Below are positions 1-8,805 of a DNA stretch of 8,805 nt, piece by piece; within the stretch, counting starts at the first letter, position 1, and the number at the start of each line of letters is the position of its first letter. The notes below the pieces were generated by a model. The model saw only the letters and a list, made by a program, of their open reading frames with translations, did no database searches and was not told the origin of the DNA. This DNA comes from a virus. Its lineage: Duplodnaviria > Heunggongvirae > Uroviricota > Caudoviricetes. The stretch lies in the IMG/VR virus record IMGVR_UViG_2671180809_000010; one strand, 5' to 3'. A program made the position numbers and the translations under genes.

Positions 1-558
1 CTAGATGGTGCTGCAACTGAGCATGACACGCTGTTACCACGATTCACCGATGATATAAGCCGTCAATCATGGGTTAGTGAAAAGGTCTTCTGTAACCTGC
101 CGTACAGCGATATTCCGTCGTTCCTCTTAAAAGCGTCTGAAGCGGATTTAGTAGCTTTCCTGATACCGCATAGAGCCAACACCAGCTACTGGCTTAGGCA
201 CATTTACAGCAATAACCACTGTCATGAAATCCGTATTCTTCATCGTGCAGTTAAATACCTTCCACCAGCAGGCCATAACGGGCTTACTATTCGTTCACCG
301 TTTCCTAGTGCAGTCGTTGTTTTTAAAAAAGAACCACGTAAGCACGAAATTACACAGACGGTTTGCTGTGGTGACACGCTATTACCGTTAACCATCATTA
401 ACAGAGGAGGCTTGAGAGGAAGACCCACCATTTACCCACCTGAGACGCTCGACAGCTTCATAAAACTATACAGGCAAGGAAAACCCATTAAGTGCATTGC
501 AGATGCTCTCAGAATGCCTCTGAGCACGTCATACAGGATTGCTCAAAGGTTGAGCTAA
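1..558 (+). CDS. DNA N6-adenine methyltransferase, phage Dam family, 5'-truncated by the window edge, with C-terminal helix-turn-helix extension
   Basis: Frame-1 translation is open from position 1 to TAA at 556-558: ...RFTDDISRQSWVSEKVFCNLPYS...HRANTSYWLRH...GLTIRSPFPSAVVVFKK...GRPTIYPPETLDSFIKLYRQGKPIKCIADALRMPLSTSYRIAQRLS. The (D/N)PPY-type motif position reads NLPY (94-105), and a PFPS-type motif follows, as in phage Dam-family methyltransferases (Pfam PF05869-like, by recall). The last ~45 residues look like a resolvase/Hin-type HTH. Confidence 0.7.
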   Translation, partial: LDGAATEHDTLLPRFTDDISRQSWVSEKVFCNLPYSDIPSFLLKASEADLVAFLIPHRANTSYWLRHIYSNNHCHEIRILHRAVKYLPPAGHNGLTIRSPFPSAVVVFKKEPRKHEITQTVCCGDTLLPLTIINRGGLRGRPTIYPPETLDSFIKLYRQGKPIKCIADALRMPLSTSYRIAQRLS

Positions 559-1116
559 AATTCTCATAAATATGGTCATTTAAATGATATAAGCCGTCAA
601 TCATGGGTTAGTGAAAAGGTCTTCTGTAACCCGCCGTACAGCGATATTCCGTCGTTCCTCTTAAAAGCGTCTGAAGCGGATTTAGTAGCTTTCCTGATAC
701 CGCATAGAGCCAACACCAGCTACTGGCTTAGGCACATTTACAGCAATAACCACTGTCATGAAATCCGTATTCTTCATCGTGCAGTTAAATACCTTCCACC
801 AGCAGGGCATAACAGGCTTACTATTAGGTCACCGTTTCCAAGTGCAGTCGTTGTTTTTAAAAAAGAACCACGTAAGCATGAAATTACACAGATGGTTTGC
901 TGTGCTGATACATTGCTACCGTTAACCATCATTAACCGTGGTGGACTAAGAGGAAGACCCACCATTTACCCACCTGAGACGCTCGACAGCTTCATAAAAC
1001 TATACAGGCAAGGAAAACCCATTAAGTACATTGCAGATGCTCTCAGAATGCCTCTGAGCACGTCATACAGGATTGCTCAAAGGTTGAGCTAAAATTCTCA
1101 TAAATATGGTCATTTA
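50..1116. repeat. Tandem direct duplication, two units of about 534 bp (50-583 and 584-1116)
   Basis: Second unit repeats the first with the same phase (534 = 178 codons). About twenty substitutions, clustered at 268-420 versus 802-954; the rest is near-identical. Confidence 0.9.
559..1092 (+). pseudogene. Duplicated 3' fragment of the methyltransferase gene, no start codon for the methyltransferase portion
   Basis: Frame is open from the TAA at 556-558 to TAA at 1090-1092 and encodes ...VFCNPPYS... (NPPY at 628-639) plus the same HTH tail. No ATG/GTG/TTG in frame before ATG 892. The ORF track calls only 892-1092 (66 aa, HTH portion), with no obvious SD. Confidence 0.5.
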
Positions 1117-1169
1117 CAAGACAGGTGATTCAGATGTTAAGAAGTATCCCTGTGAACAATAAATGACCA
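1107..1169. repeat. 10-bp perfect inverted repeat TGGTCATTTA / TAAATGACCA (1107-1116 and 1160-1169)
   Basis: Read directly. The left arm is the last 10 bp of the duplicated unit and also occurs at 573-582, at the junction of the two copies. Confidence 0.6.
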
Positions 1170-1180
1170 ATCAGTAATTA

Positions 1181-1210
1181 TTCTGTGAAATAATTGTTGC
1201 AATTTATAAT
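1181..1210 (+). promoter_or_regulatory. Candidate sigma70-type promoter upstream of the replication gene
   Basis: Perfect -10 TATAAT at 1205-1210 with a weak -35 TTCTGT at 1181-1186 (18-bp spacer). A second candidate is TTGACA at 1292-1297 with TATTCA at 1314-1319. Both are consensus matches only. Confidence 0.25.
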
Positions 1211-1474
1211 CACATCTGTTATAGTTTTTATATGGGGTGATAAAAGAACTCAGAACATTAAGAGGTTACAACGTTGGGAGGCGTCAGGGTATTGACAGAT
1301 TTTCACGGCCTCTTATTCAATCAAGGCTTTTCCTTTTGCTGTTAATACTCGCGTAATCGCTCAGGCTTCTGAGTTCCTTTATCAGTCCATCTTCTAATTA
1401 ATTCACTCCCTCTGGGGTTGGTCACTATACGTGGTCAGCCCTTTCTTTGTTTTATTTTTAAAAAGGAAAATATA

Positions 1475-2428
1475 ATGGAAAAATTCCACATGTTTGATGA
1501 CCGTATTTATCAGATGACTAATGGCGTTAAAGCTGCCGACCGTATTATTTACACTGTCATGTTGAATGAACAAAAGTTTTATCACGATAAGGGGCAATAT
1601 TATACCCCTTCATATGCTCATCTTGGTCAGTATGCTGGAATCACAAGAACATCCGTGATTGCATGTATGAAACAACTTGAGGCACATGGTTTAATCAAGA
1701 AAACTAACGTTGCAAGCAATCAGTGTGTTATTAAAGTTTATTCACTTGATGAAGTACCGGAGGTTTTAACAGAGCTTACAGCTAAGGAAGCCAGAAAGGC
1801 AAAGCTGGAGTCTAAAGTTACTCAGTCAGTCAAGAAAGATGACCCACTGAGTCAAAATTCTTTACCCACTGAGTCAAAATTTTTTACTCAGTCAGTCAAA
1901 ATCTTTGACACGTATAATAACAGTAATAACAAGAAAGAACTTATTAATAACAATAAAGAAGATGACTTTGAAGAAGAATATTTTAAGAAGGGAGCTTCGC
2001 TCTGTGATTCACATGAATGTGATTCTCTTGGTATTGAAGAGGCTATTAAAGAGACTGTTAAAACATCTGACTTAGATGACCTTGATAGTGAAGCTGCTAA
2101 AGAGGTCGTTAAAAAGGAAGATAAAATCTCTGATGTGATTGCTAGTAGTGACCATAAAAACACACAGTGCCCCGCCACTGATGATGAATTACCGGATGTT
2201 GACCTTGATGATGAAGAAGACCCTGAAAAGGAATTGAAACGTGAACAGCGTAAAGCAGAAATTAAAGAAAGATTCAGAAATGCGAAGCTAAAGAACAAGG
2301 TTAGTGACCTCGATGACTTTGATGATAGTGACGATGATTTTACTTTTACACCAAAAAAGAAAACTCACACCGAGCCAAAGAAAGAAAAAGTTAAAGTCAG
2401 ACGTGTTTATGGTGGAGGAATGTTTTAA
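1475..2428 (+). CDS. Replication initiator / replisome organiser-like protein (winged-helix N-terminus, acidic low-complexity C-terminus)
   Basis: ATG 1475 is preceded by AAGGA (1463-1467) at 7-nt spacing, preferred over the TTG at 1418 of the ORF track. N-terminal ~95 aa (...YAHLGQYAGITRTSVIACMKQLEAHGLIKK...) resemble HTH_36-type replication-protein DNA-binding domains. The C-terminal two-thirds are D/E/K-rich. Iteron-like repeats lie inside the gene. Confidence 0.6.
   Translation: MEKFHMFDDRIYQMTNGVKAADRIIYTVMLNEQKFYHDKGQYYTPSYAHLGQYAGITRTSVIACMKQLEAHGLIKKTNVASNQCVIKVYSLDEVPEVLTELTAKEARKAKLESKVTQSVKKDDPLSQNSLPTESKFFTQSVKIFDTYNNSNNKKELINNNKEDDFEEEYFKKGASLCDSHECDSLGIEEAIKETVKTSDLDDLDSEAAKEVVKKEDKISDVIASSDHKNTQCPATDDELPDVDLDDEEDPEKELKREQRKAEIKERFRNAKLKNKVSDLDDFDDSDDDFTFTPKKKTHTEPKKEKVKVRRVYGGGMF
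1818..1899. repeat. Iteron-like direct repeats (putative replication origin) inside the initiator gene
   Basis: Identical 16-mer TTACTCAGTCAGTCAA at 1818-1833 and 1884-1899. Identical 18-mer ACCCACTGAGTCAAAATT at 1842-1859 and 1864-1881. The 18-mer pair is offset by 22 bp, so it sits in different reading frames and is conserved at the DNA level, not the protein level. The two repeat types share ACTCAGT in opposite orientation. Confidence 0.55.
1900..1985. other. AT-rich tract next to the iterons (candidate DNA-unwinding element)
   Basis: Sequence AATCTTTGACACGTATAATAACAGTAATAACAAGAAAGAACTTATTAATAACAATAAAGAAG... is markedly more A+T-rich than the flanking coding sequence. Confidence 0.4.
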
Positions 2429-2724
2429 TGAAAACTTATAATGGCGAGAGAAAATACCGTGACTATTTACTCAGACGTTACAGCATTTCTCGTGAAGGTT
2501 ACTTGATGAAAGATACTCACGGGGAAGTTTACCGGATTCGACCGAAGAAAGAAGGGAGGGATTATTATTTCGTCGATGATGTGACAGATTTAAAGATTGA
2601 CGCTTTGAAGTTTGCGGTGCTGTATCATTACGATTTATGGGATTCAGTCCACCAGCTACGATTAAAAGACGGTGACCCCGGTAATCTGAGGGCCACCAAT
2701 ATTATCAAGGGAAAGTGCCGGTAA
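2428..2724 (+). CDS. Hypothetical protein, 98 aa; weak resemblance to HNH_3/AP2-type small nuclease-like proteins
   Basis: ATG 2428 overlaps the upstream stop (TAATG). GGAGG at 2414-2418. The C-terminal ...VHQLRLKDGDPGNLRATNI... loosely recalls the H-x-DG-x-N-x-NL motif region of HNH_3 proteins; this is a weak, unverified match. Confidence 0.5.
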   Translation: MKTYNGERKYRDYLLRRYSISREGYLMKDTHGEVYRIRPKKEGRDYYFVDDVTDLKIDALKFAVLYHYDLWDSVHQLRLKDGDPGNLRATNIIKGKCR

Positions 2725-2733
2725 GGCCACCAG

Positions 2734-2910
2734 CTATTTATTTACTGAAATCTCTATCTCAACACGAAGAAGTTTAAGTCGAATTGTAAGCTTTGTCTTT
2801 TTTGTAATGACTCGATTCATAACGCAAAACACCAATAGCACAATAAATACCGCAAAGCCCAACGAGCTAAAACGATGAGATTCAATAATTGCTGTGAAAA
2901 AATCATGCAT
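2734..2910 (-). CDS. Small predicted single-pass membrane protein, 58 aa
   Basis: Minus-strand ATG at 2910 with AAAGGAAAA upstream; the ORF track starts at a GTG at 2940. MHDFFTAIIESHRFSSLGFAVFIVLLVFCVMNRVITKKTKLTIRLKLLRVEIEISVNK has one hydrophobic helix followed by a basic tail. It is the only opposite-strand gene in the window. Confidence 0.4.
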   Translation of the reverse strand: MHDFFTAIIESHRFSSLGFAVFIVLLVFCVMNRVITKKTKLTIRLKLLRVEIEISVNK

Positions 2911-2914
2911 TAAT

Positions 2915-2934
2915 TTTCCTTTTGTGAAAGGAAA
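2915..2934. promoter_or_regulatory. Perfect 8-bp inverted repeat TTTCCTTT-TGTG-AAAGGAAA over the RBS of the minus-strand gene
   Basis: Read directly. It lies in the divergent region between the minus-strand gene (start 2910) and the + strand gene starting at 3048. No T-tract follows on either strand, so it is not a typical intrinsic terminator. Confidence 0.4.
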
Positions 2935-3047
2935 CAGCACCTGTATCAGCCCCTACAACCATAGTATCATGTAAATGAGGTACTGACAATATGTTAAATA
3001 GATGTTAAGATTGTAGTATGAGTAAGAGATTTAAGGAGATTTTTACA

Positions 3048-3338
3048 ATGACTCACACAGTTACGCGCCTTTTGCCAGAGGCATTTGAACGACTGGCAGC
3101 AATCAAAGCCAAATATCCCGATATGAAGCACACAGCGCTTGTTGGGGAGATTTTAAAAGAGTCGGTAAACCTTAGCCCTTTCGATAACGTTAAGGGCGTC
3201 GCAGAGGGTTCTAAGGCCATCAGAATCACAACGGGCCAACTGGAACTACTCAAAGCACAGTCCGCAGTAGCAGGTTGCTCAATGATTCAGGTGTTAAGCG
3301 CTAAGGTCCATCAACTGGCGGATAGATTGGAGGTTTAA
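3048..3338 (+). CDS. Hypothetical protein, 96 aa, possible ribbon-helix-helix DNA-binding protein
   Basis: ATG 3048 has AAGGAG at 3033-3038 (9-nt spacer), preferred over ATG 3018, which has no SD. N-terminal TVTRLLPEAFERLAAIKAK has a strand-then-helix pattern like Arc/CopG proteins. Weak. Confidence 0.5.
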   Translation: MTHTVTRLLPEAFERLAAIKAKYPDMKHTALVGEILKESVNLSPFDNVKGVAEGSKAIRITTGQLELLKAQSAVAGCSMIQVLSAKVHQLADRLEV

Positions 3339-3559
3339 TGTGTTATAGGTTCCAATATTCCACACTTGGCCGCCACCTAATCAGACAGAATTTAGCAGAT
3401 GCTGAATTTGAAGATGTGACCCTCAAAGCAAACAAACGATTAAAACCCTCTCAAATCCACCAGCTTAAACACGAATTAAAGCCACTGGTAATACTCGACT
3501 ATAACGACCCTGAACAGCTTGAGCAGGGAATTAAGCTTATTTCTGAATGGGGTGCTTGA
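3338..3559 (+). CDS. Hypothetical protein, 73 aa
   Basis: ATG overlaps the upstream stop (TAATG at 3336-3340). GGAGG at 3329-3333. Confidence 0.5.
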   Translation: MCYRFQYSTLGRHLIRQNLADAEFEDVTLKANKRLKPSQIHQLKHELKPLVILDYNDPEQLEQGIKLISEWGA

Positions 3560-3774
3560 TGAAAACTATCACAGTACAACTTCAGACTAATAAAGCATTT
3601 CGTTATTTTGAAAACTTGCTTGAGTTATACGAAGGATGGGGAAGTATCCACGGCAAAGATGATATCTATCTTCACTTGTCAGCCCCTAACTATTCTCTGA
3701 AGACTCCGGTTAAGCAAAGCTGGTTAAAAGACTACGGTCACCAGATGGGGCTATTAGTCTCAGACTTGAGCTAA
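3559..3774 (+). CDS. Hypothetical protein, 71 aa (alternative start ATG 3547)
   Basis: ATG 3559 overlaps the upstream TGA (TGATG). The ORF track starts at 3547, which lacks an SD. Start choice is uncertain. Confidence 0.45.
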   Translation: MKTITVQLQTNKAFRYFENLLELYEGWGSIHGKDDIYLHLSAPNYSLKTPVKQSWLKDYGHQMGLLVSDLS

Positions 3775-3920
3775 AAACAGCAAAACATATCTCTCAGGCT
3801 TTACCAGACGCACCAGAAACGTTTTTAAGCCCCTAATCAGGGTAACTTAGGGAATCGCCTTAAGTGGTCTAAAAAAGGGGTTAAAACGTCTTAGAATGCG
3901 ATACAGGAAGGATTTTAAAA

Positions 3921-4226
3921 ATGAATTACCCAATGCAAATTATGGTTGACCAAGAAACCATGAATTGGTTGATTGACCTGAACAGGTCGGGCTTTAATAT
4001 CTATTTCATGCATTGTTTTGAAGCGTCAACGTATATTGACAAGCATATAATCAACGAAATTAAACTTGGTGACTATGTTCACAAGCTGGAAGTAACAGAC
4101 CCATACAATAAGCGCTTTATCATTGAAGAGTGCAATCGACTTGATTTAAGCCCTGAGCAATTATTGAAGCTGAATGTATTCTTGACCTATCAGAATGAAT
4201 TAAACCCTTACAGCGAGGTGATGTAA
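3921..4226 (+). CDS. Hypothetical protein, 101 aa
   Basis: AGGAAGGA at 3905-3912, 8 nt before ATG 3921. Clean ORF. Confidence 0.6.
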   Translation: MNYPMQIMVDQETMNWLIDLNRSGFNIYFMHCFEASTYIDKHIINEIKLGDYVHKLEVTDPYNKRFIIEECNRLDLSPEQLLKLNVFLTYQNELNPYSEVM

Positions 4227-4303
4227 TGACACTCGTTATTCTCTGGATGACTTTAGGGTTATTTGTTGGTTGCTGGGTAGGTAATACGGTAAATAAGAAT
4301 TGA
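4226..4303 (+). CDS. Possible small hydrophobic peptide, 25 aa (MTLVILWMTLGLFVGCWVGNTVNKN)
   Basis: ATG overlaps the upstream TAA (TAATG at 4224-4228). GAGGTG sits 6 nt upstream. Below the ORF-track size cutoff; coding status is speculative. Confidence 0.25.
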   Translation: MTLVILWMTLGLFVGCWVGNTVNKN

Positions 4304-4327
4304 TGTTACCAATCTGTTAAAAAGCTG

Positions 4328-4356
4328 TTGACAAATAACCTTAAGCATGAGATGAT
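4328..4356 (+). promoter_or_regulatory. Candidate sigma70-type promoter in the long intergenic region
   Basis: Perfect -35 TTGACA at 4328-4333, 17-bp spacer, -10-like GATGAT at 4351-4356. Consensus match only. Confidence 0.3.
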
Positions 4357-4364
4357 GGTAATAG

Positions 4365-4381
4365 GGAAGAGCAACTCTTCC
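4365..4381. repeat. 7-bp perfect inverted repeat GGAAGAG-CAA-CTCTTCC
   Basis: Read directly, just downstream of the candidate promoter. No T-tract follows. Confidence 0.5.
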
Positions 4382-4448
4382 TGAATTAAACTATTAATCA
4401 TTCTACATCAATGATAGTTATTCTGAAAGGTGCAATGCTTTTCGCTAC

Positions 4449-4478
4449 ATGACCTTTCAGGTTAGTCTGAGAGGTCAT
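4449..4478. repeat. 12-bp inverted repeat ATGACCTTTCAG-GTTAGT-CTGAGAGGTCAT (one mismatch)
   Basis: Read directly. No T-tract follows on either strand, so a protein-binding palindrome or RNA hairpin is more likely than an intrinsic terminator. Confidence 0.55.
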
Positions 4479-4504
4479 CTCGAAAAGTACTCTTGTTCAT
4501 TCGT

Positions 4505-4526
4505 TTGAATCCTTTTTGAATCCTTT
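4505..4526. repeat. Adjacent tandem 11-bp repeat TTGAATCCTTT x2
   Basis: Read directly at 4505-4515 and 4516-4526. Confidence 0.6.
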
Positions 4527-4701
4527 AGATGTTTTAATTTCTTCACCTTATGAATGGCCCTTTATAAGAAATTATCTAGGGCTATTCAGCTTTTAAAAAG
4601 CATACTTGGCAAACCGCCTTTTAAGTCTCTTCTAAGTTTAGATAGGCTGTCAGGTGTGCTTTTTAAAAACTGAAACACTTCCGCTTAGAAGAGGAAAAGC
4701 A

Positions 4702-5412
4702 ATGACAAATGATATTTACATTAATGGCAAAGTGATTGATAGCTTCAGTGACTGGTCGCCACAGACTGAACATCCAGCTATCACTATTCAGCGTAAAGAG
4801 CATGACAAGCGTATTGAGCTTGAGCAATCGCTAAAGATGTCACCAAAAACAACCATCTTTGTGTCTCCTGAGCCTCAAGAGATGCCTGATATTTGCAAGA
4901 GTGAAGCATTACTTGAGCTTGAAAAGAAATATTACCAACTGCTGAAAGAACAGCGCCTTAGATTAGATGACGCTTACAGCAAAGTTACCTTGATGCAATC
5001 AGCTATTGAGCCGTCAGAATTTGAGATTCAGGATGAATTGTCACAGAAACCATTTGTCTATTACCAATACGAAGATAATGATGGTTTTGGTACTTTTCAA
5101 GAAAACGTCGCAGCCGTGATTAGTAGTCTTCCTGCTGGACATCGAATTGTGAAGATGGTTAAGGCATCAAGAGGTGCTGGTCAGTTTATTTACATGACTA
5201 ATAAGAGCGATGAAGAACTCGCTGAAATTGCTAGACAGAACATCTTGGCATCACGTAACAAGCAACTTGATAATGTTAAGTTGTATCTCTCAAGAGAGCT
5301 TCAGGCTATGAAAGAGCTTGTGAAAGAATATGAAGATGCTAAGAAGATTGCTATGCAGGCTGATATTGAGCAGCTTACGAAGATTTCTAGCAAATATGCA
5401 AAGGCTATTTAA
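4702..5412 (+). CDS. Hypothetical protein, 236 aa
   Basis: ATG 4702 has GAGGA at 4691-4695 (6-nt spacer), preferred over the GTG at 4654 of the ORF track. Long clean ORF with no recognised domain. Confidence 0.65.
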   Translation: MTNDIYINGKVIDSFSDWSPQTEHPAITIQRKEHDKRIELEQSLKMSPKTTIFVSPEPQEMPDICKSEALLELEKKYYQLLKEQRLRLDDAYSKVTLMQSAIEPSEFEIQDELSQKPFVYYQYEDNDGFGTFQENVAAVISSLPAGHRIVKMVKASRGAGQFIYMTNKSDEELAEIARQNILASRNKQLDNVKLYLSRELQAMKELVKEYEDAKKIAMQADIEQLTKISSKYAKAI

Positions 5413-5436
5413 TTAATAATTAAAAGGTGGTGGTGA

Positions 5437-5643
5437 ATGATTGATTTAACAGAACGCTATGAGCTTATTAAAGCAATTAGTGAACGATTGAAAGAACAAC
5501 CCAACAAACCAAAACGAATCAAATCATTCACCTCCTCTAAGCAAAAGAATAGAATCAGGAAAATAGCTAAGTGGTGTCTTGATAAATTACCAAGTGATTG
5601 TCAGATTGTTGGTGAAGATGGTAATTATTATCTGGTTAGGTAA
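5437..5643 (+). CDS. Hypothetical basic protein, 68 aa
   Basis: AAGGTGG at 5424-5430, 6 nt before ATG 5437. Lys/Arg-rich. Confidence 0.55.
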   Translation: MIDLTERYELIKAISERLKEQPNKPKRIKSFTSSKQKNRIRKIAKWCLDKLPSDCQIVGEDGNYYLVR

Positions 5644-5741
5644 CAAGATTGGTTGGGTGAAAATCTACGGGAGAGATTATCGAGTGATATCGGTAGTCTT
5701 TCCCTTTTTCGTATATGAACACTTAAAGAGGTGAAACATGA

Positions 5742-7922
5742 ATGAGCAAATTCACAGTTGATAGTTTTATCGTTGAACTTAGTTTCAGTGAAAACGTTAT
5801 TAAGGGCTTGCAAAGAGTTGAAAAGGCAGCTTTGCAGTCAGCACAAAGAATTGAACGCAATTTGAATAGAGCGTTTAAGGTCGATACCAAGCAACTTGAC
5901 AGCAATCTGACAAGTTCTTTAGGGCAGCTTGAAAGGAAGTTTAATAAGACCTTTGACAAGATTGAGCAGAGAGCAAGAAGCACAAAAGCATTTCAGTTTG
6001 CCACCAGATTTAATGACACTGTTAATCCTCCAAAACAATCAAGGCAACCACGAATTAGCGGAAACAGAGCAATCACAGCAGCGCATAGCGTGAATATGTC
6101 TAAGCTTGGTGATATTAATCCGCTGATGGCTAAAATGTTTAAAGCACAGTATTACAGCTTAAGCGGTAAGGCTGGTAATATTGGAAGTGAAAAGTTTAAC
6201 GCTGAACTTGCAAAATTAAATCAATCTCTTCGTGAAACGTTGAATAAACTCAGGTCACAGACAAAGACCGCCAGCATTAACAATACAAGCGACGCATTTA
6301 ATAATCTTGCAAGCAATGCGATTAAATTATCTGGTGCATTTTACTCTGTGATGGGTGCTCTTAACGCTTACAAGGCCATTATGAATGCAGGTCTTAAACG
6401 AGATTCCGCACAGAGAGCCGCTAAGTTTGTACTTGGTGATAAAGCATCTGAAGCTGAGGTATTTATTCGAAATTTAGCAGACAAGACAGGTCTTAATATC
6501 TCTGAAGGGCTATCAAGCTACGCTAAGTTTGCAGCAGGTGCTCAGGGTTCTATGTCACAGGAACAGACACAGGAGCTATTTGGTAATGCAACGGCTATGA
6601 GTCGCTTAATGGGGCTTTCTAACGATGAGCTAAACGGCATTTTGAGAGCATTTGAGCAGATGGCGAGCAAGGGCAAGATTCAGGCTGAGGAATTACGTGG
6701 GCAGTTAGGTGACCGTATGGCTGGTGCATTTAAGCTATTCGCTGAAGCATTGGGTATGACTGCTACAGAGCTTGATGCAGCCATGAAAAACGGGAAGGTA
6801 CTTTCCGCTGATACTCTCCCTAAAGTCGCTAAACAGATGGGCTTGATGATTGATAAAGCGGGTGGCTGGGCTGAAGTCACTAAGAGCACTCAGACAGCTT
6901 TAGGTAAGTTAGCAAACAATTGGGATGATACGATGGTGAAAATCTTCTCAGGTTCACAGGATGAGCTAAACGGCTTCTTATCCAGCCTGAGTAACCTGCT
7001 TAGTGAAATGGGGATGAGTTCTTCTATCGCTGGTGATGCTATCGGTGGACTTATCGACATGCTTAAAGCTGGTGTAGATGATATTCGCGTATTCAATAAC
7101 ACCATTGAAGGCTGGATTTTACAGACTAAGAAGTTCTATTACAGCCTTGATGACACTAAACGAAAACTACTTGATGAAGTCGGTGATGGTTTTATCAACT
7201 TCGTCAAAGGTCTTGCTATAGCGTTATCTGCAAAGACGCTATTCAGTGCTACTACAGGGGTTATGAACCTGACAAGAGCAATCACAACGTTAGGTACAAG
7301 AGCTAATCAGGTGGCTGGTCAGGTAGCTACTGGTAAAGGTGGTGGAAAACTGAAAGGTGTAGCTGGTGGTGTAGGTAGTGCTCTTGCAATTGGTTATGCT
7401 GATGACGGTTATGAAACAGCGTTAGCATTAGCTTCAATGATTCCACAAATCAGAGGCGTCACTCTTGGTTTATATGCATTGAAGAAAGCACTGGATTTTA
7501 TGAATCAGGAAGTAGTCAAAAACGCTAATATGCATCCGTCTGGGGTAGGTGTGGGTAGTGACTTTAATCCCGTGTATTCTGGTGACCCTAATAAACCGAA
7601 TATGATTAACGAAGGATGGAGTAGAATTTTTAGTTCAATGGGTGAATTGTTTAACAATGCCACAATGAATATTGCAAGATTCAATCATCCAGAGTTAAAC
7701 AACATTAAGCAAGATTCAGCATTAACGAGTGCAGATATTCAGGGTCTGAGGGATGAAATTAGTGCTTTGAGTAAGCGTATTCAGGAGCCAGTGAAAGTTT
7801 CACTTGGTGGTCAAGTTGTCGTTCGACCAGATGAACCATCTTTCTTTACTTTCAATCAATCAGCTAATGACCAGTTCACGCAGGATATGCTCTTAAGTTC
7901 AAGCTATCCAGAGGAAGAATGA
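5742..7922 (+). CDS. Phage tail tape measure protein, 726 aa
   Basis: AGAGGTGA at 5727-5734 before ATG 5742. The segment ...EQMASKGKIQAEELRGQLGDRMAGAFKLFAEALGMTATELDAAMKNGKVLSADTLPKVAKQM... (about 6610-6840) matches the conserved tape-measure domain (TIGR02675-type, by recall). There is a coiled-coil-like N-terminus and a Gly-rich hydrophobic stretch GKGGGKLKGVAGGVGSALAIGY... near the C-terminus. Confidence 0.75.
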   Translation: MSKFTVDSFIVELSFSENVIKGLQRVEKAALQSAQRIERNLNRAFKVDTKQLDSNLTSSLGQLERKFNKTFDKIEQRARSTKAFQFATRFNDTVNPPKQSRQPRISGNRAITAAHSVNMSKLGDINPLMAKMFKAQYYSLSGKAGNIGSEKFNAELAKLNQSLRETLNKLRSQTKTASINNTSDAFNNLASNAIKLSGAFYSVMGALNAYKAIMNAGLKRDSAQRAAKFVLGDKASEAEVFIRNLADKTGLNISEGLSSYAKFAAGAQGSMSQEQTQELFGNATAMSRLMGLSNDELNGILRAFEQMASKGKIQAEELRGQLGDRMAGAFKLFAEALGMTATELDAAMKNGKVLSADTLPKVAKQMGLMIDKAGGWAEVTKSTQTALGKLANNWDDTMVKIFSGSQDELNGFLSSLSNLLSEMGMSSSIAGDAIGGLIDMLKAGVDDIRVFNNTIEGWILQTKKFYYSLDDTKRKLLDEVGDGFINFVKGLAIALSAKTLFSATTGVMNLTRAITTLGTRANQVAGQVATGKGGGKLKGVAGGVGSALAIGYADDGYETALALASMIPQIRGVTLGLYALKKALDFMNQEVVKNANMHPSGVGVGSDFNPVYSGDPNKPNMINEGWSRIFSSMGELFNNATMNIARFNHPELNNIKQDSALTSADIQGLRDEISALSKRIQEPVKVSLGGQVVVRPDEPSFFTFNQSANDQFTQDMLLSSSYPEEE

Positions 7923-7934
7923 TTTAACGGTGTT

Positions 7935-7987
7935 CTACGTGAATAAAGCAAAGTTAATACCCACACCAAAAATTATTTTTCACGTAG
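7935..7987. repeat. 9-bp inverted repeat CTACGTGAA ... TTCACGTAG with 35-bp A+T-rich spacer
   Basis: Read directly, downstream of the tape measure stop. Confidence 0.5.
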
Positions 7988-8017
7988 CTCACGCTTAACA
8001 GAGAAAATACATATATA

Positions 8018-8805
<788 letters not shown>

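Follow-up and report, generated by a model that had tools for sequence, protein, structure and literature searches.

What does a gap of about 400 bp do in a stretch of DNA that is otherwise densely coded? The question is raised by IMG/VR virus record IMGVR_UViG_2671180809_000010, assigned to Caudoviricetes, the whole 8,805-nt stretch of which (the window) was analyzed here. The gap extends from the end of a conserved 25-aa open reading frame (ORF) at 4303 to the ATG of the next gene at 4702, which is preceded by GAGG at 4691–4694. A first reading made from the letters alone (the sequence-only reading) had regarded the gap as a regulatory region and listed a promoter, a hairpin, a palindrome, and a tandem repeat in it. 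All of these were located in the window sequence at the coordinates that it gave, and the regulatory assignment is supported by a conserved promoter and by evidence for RNA structure. Functional statements on the gap are drawn from sequence throughout this report. On this basis, the gap probably consists of a promoter and a structured 5′ leader of about 340 nt that gates translation of a tail-gene operon and, in most relatives, transcription elongation as well.

Conservation of the gap and folding of its RNA

The gap and its flanks recurred in 478 of 5,426 Escherichia coli genomes (about 9%) with identities of 72–88%, and the gap was also found in 13 virome and 99 metagenome contigs that were fetched with an invariant 20-mer of its sequence. 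The element counts given below for the leader are based on 113 loci. The contig loci were retrieved by the 20-mer, so that its invariance among those 112 is by construction; the 20-mer was identical in five E. coli/Escherichia loci that were found independently of it. Each genome carried the gap in one to three places, always within the same genomic island, and not scattered in the manner of a dispersed repeat of the REP or MITE kind. The sequence-only reading had made its proposal depend on conservation in related genomes, and the elements of the gap are indeed kept in hundreds of independent loci.

The + strand RNA of 4362–4715 was predicted to fold with −112.9 kcal/mol (z = −6.8), and none of 100 shuffled sequences folded as well. 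The covariance-model search that had been proposed earlier as a check gave no family match. Rfam 15 returned only sub-threshold noise from eukaryotic miRNA and snoRNA families at 4585–4744 of the window (E up to 1), and no match to the leader in loci carrying types B to E of the hairpin described in the next section. A blastn search of the gap DNA against 50,697 phage records yielded no match.

A long hairpin whose loop matches the downstream ribosome-binding site

The largest element of the gap is a hairpin, designated H5, which the sequence-only reading had missed. H5, the Shine-Dalgarno (SD) region that its loop matches, and the gene concerned are located as follows.

4585–4674, + strand: H5, with a 27-bp stem (arms 4585–4611 and 4648–4674) and a 36-nt apical loop; the stem holds three G·U pairs and one C·A mismatch
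4627–4636, + strand: anti-SD CUCUUCUAAG in the apical loop of H5, complementary at 10 of 10 positions to 4684–4693
4684–4704, + strand: SD region CUUAGAAGAG, with the GAGG core at 4691–4694, a 7-nt spacer, and the AUG at 4702 of the 236-aa gene
4702–5412, + strand: 236-aa gene, the first gene behind the leader

The region of H5 folded with z = −5.0 on the + strand and z = −3.0 on the − strand, and the three apparent mismatches in the stem of the window are G·U pairs on the + strand only. Five sequence types of H5 were found among the 113 loci, with types A, B, C, D, and E represented by 57, 37, 15, 1, and 1 loci, respectively, and each type folds into a stem of 21–31 bp with a loop of 22–37 nt. 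A covariance model built from type A alone found types B and C with E values of 1e-6 to 1e-4 and types D and E with E values of about 0.07. The cells of the H5 alignment were 92.6% paired, compared with 81.0% in shuffles (reached by 0 of 500) and 34–47% in slid controls, and the covariation score was 0.422, compared with 0.224 in shuffles (again 0 of 500). Compensatory changes, affecting both sides of a pair, were present in 18 of the 27 stem pairs. Sense rows were 95.1% paired, with 11% G·U, and antisense rows 88.8%; the mismatches of the stem were mostly G·U on the + strand (69 cells vs. about 25 A·C cells). A plain MAFFT alignment (A1), which mis-registers the 3′ arm between hairpin types, was excluded from the pair counts.

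In every type, 8–12 nt of the apical loop are complementary to the SD region that precedes the downstream gene. In types A, B, and E, the loop sequence UCUUCUAAG(UGU) pairs with (ACA)CUUAGA(A)GAGG, and in types C and D, the loop sequence UUCACCUC(U) pairs with (A)GAGGUGAA. The five types thus correspond to two SD classes, and the class of the loop agreed with the class of the SD in all classified loci. The loop:SD duplex of the window was calculated at −18 kcal/mol, a value reached by 1 of 500 shuffled loops. Across the types, cognate duplexes had energies of −14 to −18 kcal/mol and cross-class duplexes had energies of −6 to −10 kcal/mol, and 0–8 of 500 shuffled loops reached the observed values. 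The hairpins of the gap had been interpreted before as either protein-binding sites or RNA structure; the compensatory changes, the G·U pairs confined to the + strand, and the complementarity between loop and SD favor the second of these options.

About one-third of the loci carry, behind the same leader, a 234-aa gene instead of the 236-aa gene. Its product is a homologue of the 236-aa protein at 26% identity (E about 1e-21), and the leader therefore always precedes this protein family. Type A leaders are found in front of both divergent versions of the gene, and both type A and type C leaders are found in front of the 234-aa version.

Promoter, hairpins, and terminators of the leader

The other elements of the gap and its upstream edge are as follows.

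4226–4303, + strand: 25-aa hydrophobic ORF MTLVILWMTLGLFVGCWVGNTVNKN, the start of which overlaps the stop of a 101-aa ORF; upstream edge of the gap
4297–4327, no strand assigned: block upstream of the −35 element; most positions are at least 97% identical, and an A-tract lies at −44 to −39
4328–4356, + strand: predicted sigma-70 promoter, with TTGACA at 4328–4333, a 17-nt spacer, GATGAT at 4351–4356, and an extended −10 TG at 4348–4349
4364–4382, + strand: hairpin H1, where the transcript is predicted to begin; 7 bp with a 3-nt loop at 4365–4381, or 8 bp with G4364·U4382
4383–4423, + strand: variable segment forming a weak hairpin in the window; not conserved, with indels of up to 28 nt in relatives
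4425–4444, + strand: invariant 20-mer GAAAGGTGCAATGCTTTTCG; the 5′ half is single-stranded and SD-like (AAGGUG), followed by AUG, and the 3′ half forms the base of H3
4436–4489, + strand: two-tier hairpin H3, with an outer helix (4436–4444/4481–4489) and an inner helix (4449–4460/4467–4478)
4504–4525, no strand assigned: tandem 11-mer TTTGAATCCTT in two exact copies
4551–4588, + strand: hairpin resembling T2, with a GCCCU/AGGGC core and an AUAA-GAAA-UUAU tip

The predicted promoter was the top-scoring promoter-like site of the window (10/12 plus TG), in which promoter-like sites as a whole were not enriched (15 vs. 21 ± 4.6 in shuffles). Two of the related loci, L001 and L002, share the site, and the version in L002 (11/12 plus TG) was the best of its whole island. 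TTGACA-17-CATAAT, with the TG, was present in 86 of the 113 loci and the GATGAT form in 17, with either of them in 103. The sequence from 4297 to 4356, comprising the upstream block, the promoter, and its spacer, is nearly invariant across about 110 loci, and binding of a protein to it is plausible. Three copies of TGTTR, read by eye at 4305, 4315, and 4326, are spaced by 10–11 bp, which is one helical turn, and run into the −35 element. The block carrying them is possibly an operator, an UP element, or a site for loading an antiterminator.

The transcript is predicted to start at about 4362–4364, immediately at H1. The stem variants of H1 found in relatives (GGAAGAG/CUCUUCC, GGGAGAG/CUCUCUU, AGGAGAG/CUCUCCU, and GGAAGAG/UUUUUCC) still pair, some of them only through G·U pairs on the + strand, and in some relatives a T-rich run after the hairpin was called terminator-like. 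Ten loci (L018, L025, L027, L039, L050, L063, L066, L068, L069, and L103) carry a 29-nt insertion, TATGAGGATAGTCTTCTATCCGAAGTC, with a small hairpin of its own. The insertion lies directly after the −10 element and shifts H1 away from the predicted start.

The 20-mer is unique in the window even when three mismatches are allowed. Translation of a leader peptide from its AUG was considered and discarded: the resulting ORF varies from 5 to 58 aa, and only MLF(V/A) is common to the loci. Long-range pairing of 4433–4443 with 4694–4704 was likewise discarded for lack of conservation: the 20-mer is constant, but the start region varies. In an unrelated metagenome contig (L092), a canonical terminator hairpin, CTCCCGAAAG-GTGCAATG-CTTTTCGGGAG followed by TTTTTT, is built around the 20-mer, which can therefore itself fold as a small hairpin.

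The palindrome listed by the sequence-only reading, with 12-nt arms that are 92% complementary and 6 nt apart (4449–4460/4467–4478), is only the inner helix of H3. All 42 distinct versions of H3 fold with at least 17 bp (median ΔG −22.6, median z −5.9), and the inner stem occurs in at least four sequence versions with compensatory changes. An attenuator-like switch between 4423–4431 and 4452–4460 was rejected as a candidate, since it is lost in H3 versions with different stems. The fate of the two repeats that had been put forward for a conservation check was divided: the palindrome hairpin is kept in relatives, and the tandem 11-mer is not. The latter was found in 1 of the 113 loci, namely the window, and relatives have a single copy. 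It is a recent duplication specific to the window and not a conserved element, and the functional weight given to it earlier is not supported.

The middle of the leader is modular. The short form, to which the window belongs, measures about 95–105 nt, and the long form, of about 150–200 nt, carries a canonical terminator, T1 (TGCCCTAATCATGAGTTAGGGCG followed by TTTCTTT), which was called in L001 and is present in 77 of the 113 loci. The GCCCT/AGGGC hairpin T2 is universal, and its AGGGC arm is followed by at least four T in 97 of the 113 loci; 16 loci, the window among them, lack this run. In the window, the usual U-tract of T2 is replaced by UAUUC (UAUUCAG after the hairpin), which lengthens the stem. 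No terminator-like site was called in 4304–4701 of the window, in agreement with the earlier statement that its hairpins have no T-tract; most relatives do carry T-tract terminators in the leader. The strongest terminator-like site of the window lies outside the gap, at 5669–5704, where it separates the 68-aa gene from the tape measure gene inside the presumed operon, with 15 pairs followed by TTTTT. It was dismissed as a conserved element, as none was called at the equivalent position of L002.

The 25-aa ORF at the upstream edge is present in most related loci with its conserved C-terminus. It has a lipobox-like LFVG|C motif, and processing there would leave a 10-residue lipopeptide, CWVGNTVNKN. 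In some loci, such as L032, an unrelated small hydrophobic ORF takes its place.

Proposed gating of the operon

The sequence shows the elements, their conservation, the covariation of the stem and of loop and SD, and the strand asymmetry; promoter use, translational repression, and a release trigger are derived from these in the following way. The near-consensus and apparently constitutive promoter at 4328–4356 would start a + strand transcript near 4363, and the leader RNA would fold into the 5′-terminal H1, the two-tier H3 on the invariant 20-mer, the GCCCU/AGGGC hairpin T2, and the 27-bp H5. The 36-nt loop of H5 would display the 10-nt anti-SD, which would pair with the SD region 50 nt downstream and block ribosome binding to the first gene. 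The operon, made up of the 236-aa gene, the 68-aa gene, the tape measure gene, and a baseplate-like gene, would thereby stay silent despite its constitutive-looking promoter. A transcriptional gate would be added in most relatives by intrinsic terminators of the leader (T1, T2, or both), at which most transcripts would end. Release presumably follows a trigger tied to infection by a helper phage. One candidate is cleavage of the 27-bp stem by RNase III, which would part the anti-SD from the mRNA, and another is an RNA-binding or antitermination factor. The loop could reach the SD if the A/U-rich lower stem opens to allow a strained pseudoknot, after cleavage by RNase III, or in trans in the manner of the c4 RNA.

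Several points weigh against this proposal. The CCUC/GAGG core of the match is trivial for any anti-SD, and only the co-changing flank is informative. Loop and SD lie about 50 nt apart, and their matching could result from linkage alone; the evidence comes from five discrete types, not from many independent events. The alignment used to count stem covariation was fitted by the covariance model, which leans toward the structure, and it included antisense rows. The loop:SD pairing crosses H5, and the linker to the SD strand is 0–10 nt in types A and B and 13–21 nt in type C; in types A and B, a cis pseudoknot with H5 fully formed would be strained. The nested alternative, in which loop and SD pair without H5, is less stable than the H5 fold by 12–14 kcal/mol. 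In addition, the window copy lacks the terminators of most relatives, and its island looks degraded, with a frameshift and the end of an insertion sequence, so that this copy may not be functional. The conclusion for the leader family is therefore firmer than any claim on the function of the window copy itself.

Other explanations of the leader

The short linker of types A and B, which leaves little room for an easy cis pseudoknot, would suit a loop that acts in trans. H5 would then be the precursor of an antisense RNA resembling c4 of phages P1 and P7, which would be co-transcribed with its target and cut from the leader; its loop would pair with the SD of this operon wherever a transcript of it is present in the cell, giving type-specific repression, or "immunity," among islands. 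The c4 antisense RNA of the P1 immI region (cited in PMC8201110) is a precedent. The stable stem with its large open loop, the discrete specificity classes of loop and SD, and the strong and constitutive-looking promoter are compatible with such an RNA. Citron and Schuster reportedly found in 1990 that c4 is co-transcribed with its target and described its P1/P7 specificity. However, no Rfam match to C4 was obtained, and with terminators between the promoter and H5 in 77 of the 113 loci, H5 would not be made constitutively there. Two islands of type A also occur on one contig (L079 and L115), which gives no sign of exclusion, and we regard an RNA of this kind as unlikely. The stem itself admits another reading, in which H5 mainly serves as a site of RNase III processing or of RNA stability that parts an abundant leader RNA from the operon mRNA and sets the 5′ end of the latter, with little regulatory role for the match between loop and SD. 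RNase III cleaves duplexes of such size in the lambda N leader, the T7 early sites, and the pnp and rnc leaders. Its substrates have at least about 20 bp of nearly continuous double-stranded RNA, which H5 provides with 27 bp in the window and 21–31 bp across the types, the near-perfect duplex being put at 22–30 bp in all five, and no alternative fold comes near the stability of the stem. This reading nevertheless leaves both the 8–12-nt SD match of the loop in every type and the joint change of loop and SD unexplained, and appears improbable.

The presence of T1 in 77 and of T2 with a T-run in 97 of the 113 loci is also what a free-standing small RNA would require. The strong promoter would then produce an RNA of about 190–330 nt, from about 4363 to T1 or T2, that acts on targets of the host or helper, and the operon would be expressed from elsewhere; the conservation of H1, the 20-mer, and H3 accords with this. 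The sequence-only reading had named a small RNA locus among its options, and the canonical terminator about 190 nt past the predicted start in 77 of the 113 relatives keeps the option alive for these, whereas the window and 15 other loci have no usable terminator. A second promoter between T2 and the 236-aa gene is not evident, no complementarity to a target was found, and the 20-mer is unique in the window. A small RNA would moreover be compatible with the gating leader and does not exclude it; as a replacement for it, we consider the small RNA a poor prospect. Finally, the inverted repeats could act at the DNA level, as operators for proteins of the island or helper, a packaging site, or an origin. 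The nearly invariant 60-bp promoter block, spacer included, and its phased TGTTR motifs make protein binding at the promoter likely, and one hairpin-forming repeat scores on the opposite strand too. Yet the stem mismatches of H5 are biased to G·U on the + strand, complementarity to an SD is meaningful only for RNA, and a stem whose sequence changes while its pairing is kept is the opposite of a sequence-specific protein site. The likely origin iterons lie elsewhere, at 1818–1899 in the replication initiator (Rep) gene. The gap has no similarity to phage DNA and its signals are at the RNA level, which speaks against the packaging site suggested earlier, and DNA sites as the main role of the repeats are very improbable. 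The translational gate proposed above is the explanation that we retain.

The 236-aa protein

The product of the first gene behind the leader and the small ORFs had no match in Pfam, PHROGs, NCBIfam, PADLOC, or PDB sequences, and the 236-aa protein had none in a tblastn search against phages. An AlphaFold model of the protein (pLDDT 75) shows a long coiled coil and a small alpha/beta domain, and a Foldseek search with this model against PDB and BFVD gave no match at E ≤ 0.001. A scan of GTDB genomes with the protein returned only two loci. The label "transposase" that the protein bears in RefSeq in many genomes is supported by none of the sequence or fold searches, which did not point to any other function either, and was not adopted.

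The island and its tail genes

Over its whole length, the window has matches in E. coli chromosomes (534 of 5,426 complete genomes gave hits), and it is part of an integrative island of E. coli and Shigella of about 10–11 kb, not a phage genome. The extents of the island in the window and in two related loci are as follows.

1–8805 of the window: island
10833–24624 of L001: island
1288–11983 of L002: island

In complete genomes, the island sits between the two halves of its target; the insertion targets seen were yciI-tonB, yecE, and a site adjoining the rut operon. The gene order is constant. It runs from a small serine recombinase through a Dam methylase, the HTH/lambda-O-like replication initiator Rep, and 4–6 small ORFs to the gap, and on through the 236-aa gene, the 68-aa gene, the tape measure gene, and the "baseplate" gene to a large serine recombinase. 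The gap thus lies between the module of Rep and small ORFs, concerned with replication, and the module of tail genes. The early-to-late switch imagined in the sequence-only reading fits this position between replication/regulatory and tail-gene modules, but not the nature of the element, which is a small satellite-like integrative island and not a phage.

Matches of the window to phage DNA were limited to the tail genes on its right-hand side, and all of them were to Felixounavirus; the rest of the island had no phage DNA match. Pieces of the tape measure gene (5742–7922) match Felixounavirus DNA at 88%, and 8103–8538 in the "baseplate" gene matches at about 92%, with 88–93% for both tail genes together. 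The two tail genes of the island correspond to the tape measure gene and the gene after it in the Felix-O1-like phage garuso (genes 118 and 119), where they adjoin each other as well. These identities suggest recent exchange with Felix-O1-like virulent phages and, possibly, dependence on them.

The window copy has several peculiarities. Its 236-aa protein is 100% identical to an S. sonnei entry, which marks the island as one of the Shigella sonnei type. The baseplate-like gene (about 8060–8805) is split over two reading frames by a frameshift around 8280, and the last 41 bases (8765–8805) match Shigella sonnei and E. coli plasmids at 95% and are probably the end of an insertion sequence. A 534-bp tandem duplication at 50–883, of which at least 300 nt are 98% identical, extends over the C-terminal portion of the Dam methylase gene together with a small HTH-like ORF; in contig L119 from S. 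sonnei, which encodes the same 236-aa protein, Dam is a single intact gene of 220 aa. In the leader of the window, the T-tracts of both terminators were lost, and the private 11-bp duplication was gained.

Inside the Rep gene, the 16-mer TTACTCAGTCAGTCAA occurs three times at 1818–1899, in two exact copies and one copy of 81% identity, spaced by 44 and 22 bp. These copies look like iterons of a lambda-O-type origin within the initiator gene. Just upstream of the gene, at 1232–1390, there is an imperfect 38-nt inverted repeat with 76% complementarity and arms 83 nt apart, and a terminator-like hairpin at 1414–1442 overlaps the listed start of the Rep ORF at 1418. A scan of the window for tRNA and tmRNA genes found none. 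An 11,233-bp metagenome contig carrying the island (L058) has a terminal overlap of 55 nt, which is the signature that an assembler leaves on a circular molecule; it was the only one with such an overlap among 29 metagenome contigs of about 11 kb checked.

The architecture of the island, as known from its genes, resembles that of phage satellites such as PLE. Literature searches found no published description of such a satellite or island, and an identity with SpLE2 of strain Sakai was ruled out, as SpLE2 is an unrelated CP4-44-like element. A more far-reaching and clearly speculative idea, to which we would give only a small chance, is that the family comprises undescribed satellites of E. 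coli and Shigella that parasitize virulent Felix-O1-like phages as PLE parasitizes ICP1. The leader would then act as their master switch, with H5 cut out as an antisense RNA and its loop setting interchangeable "immunity types" (A/B/E vs. C/D), and these would silence the stolen tail genes until the helper infects and changes RNase III activity or supplies a phage factor.

If the gating leader holds true, it would be a new and widespread cis-regulatory RNA motif that about 9% of complete E. coli genomes contain and that has never been annotated, and it would mark the control point of tail genes on a small integrative island. A 27-bp stem that displays an anti-SD in its loop would be an unusual design, and it comes in several matched specificity types. 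Felix-O1-like virulent phages are used in typing and biocontrol of Salmonella and E. coli, and knowing what opens the gate would tell if and in what way the island senses these phages and exploits or blocks them. Even if the signals are evolutionary leftovers, the annotation is corrected in that the window is not a phage genome, nothing supports the label "transposase," and no function of the tandem repeat is conserved.

Comparison with known systems

The leader, as predicted, shares with the c4 system of P1/P7 immI, which controls icd-ant, a structured RNA that lies upstream of the controlled genes, is co-transcribed with them, and has a constitutive promoter. In both, the first gene downstream has a ribosome-binding region to which loop sequences are complementary, and matched pairs of loop and target differ between elements. 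Unlike c4, which has two short recognition loops and controls an antirepressor, the leader has one stem of 22–30 bp with one loop of 30–37 nt and precedes tail-related genes. Leaders that sequester the SD, such as those of IS200 tnpA, Mu mom/Com, E. coli rpsO, and the alpha-operon pseudoknots, similarly contain a cis sequence that pairs with the SD or start region and blocks initiation, with a hairpin loop as the partner of a downstream sequence in rpsO and the alpha operon. In contrast to these, the anti-SD of the present leader is in the apical loop of a very long and independently stable stem, not in the opposite arm of a hairpin, and the short linker makes a classical H-type pseudoknot, as in pseudoknot operators, awkward.

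The late leader of lambda (PR′, 6S RNA, tR′, and Q) also combines a strong constitutive promoter with a short terminated leader RNA before structural genes, and the leader terminators of most relatives and the invariant promoter spacer are further points of likeness. No Q-like protein was detected in the island, however, the window lacks these leader terminators, and H5 with its anti-SD would form an extra, translational layer. The leaders processed by RNase III (lambda N, T7 R1.1, pnp, and adhE) likewise have a long near-perfect duplex just upstream of the ribosome-binding site, and cleavage would alter access to that site, but they are without a covarying loop complementary to the SD. The immunity of satellite P4 (CI RNA, seqA/seqC) is comparable in that an element of phage-satellite type has a constitutive promoter with regulation in the leader RNA through premature termination. 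In the island, unlike P4, no repeated targets complementary to the leader RNA were found, and the complementarity is directed at the SD, not at sites that promote termination. Among these systems, two features set the leader apart: the position of its anti-SD, in the loop of a very long stem that is stable by itself, and its occurrence in several matched types.

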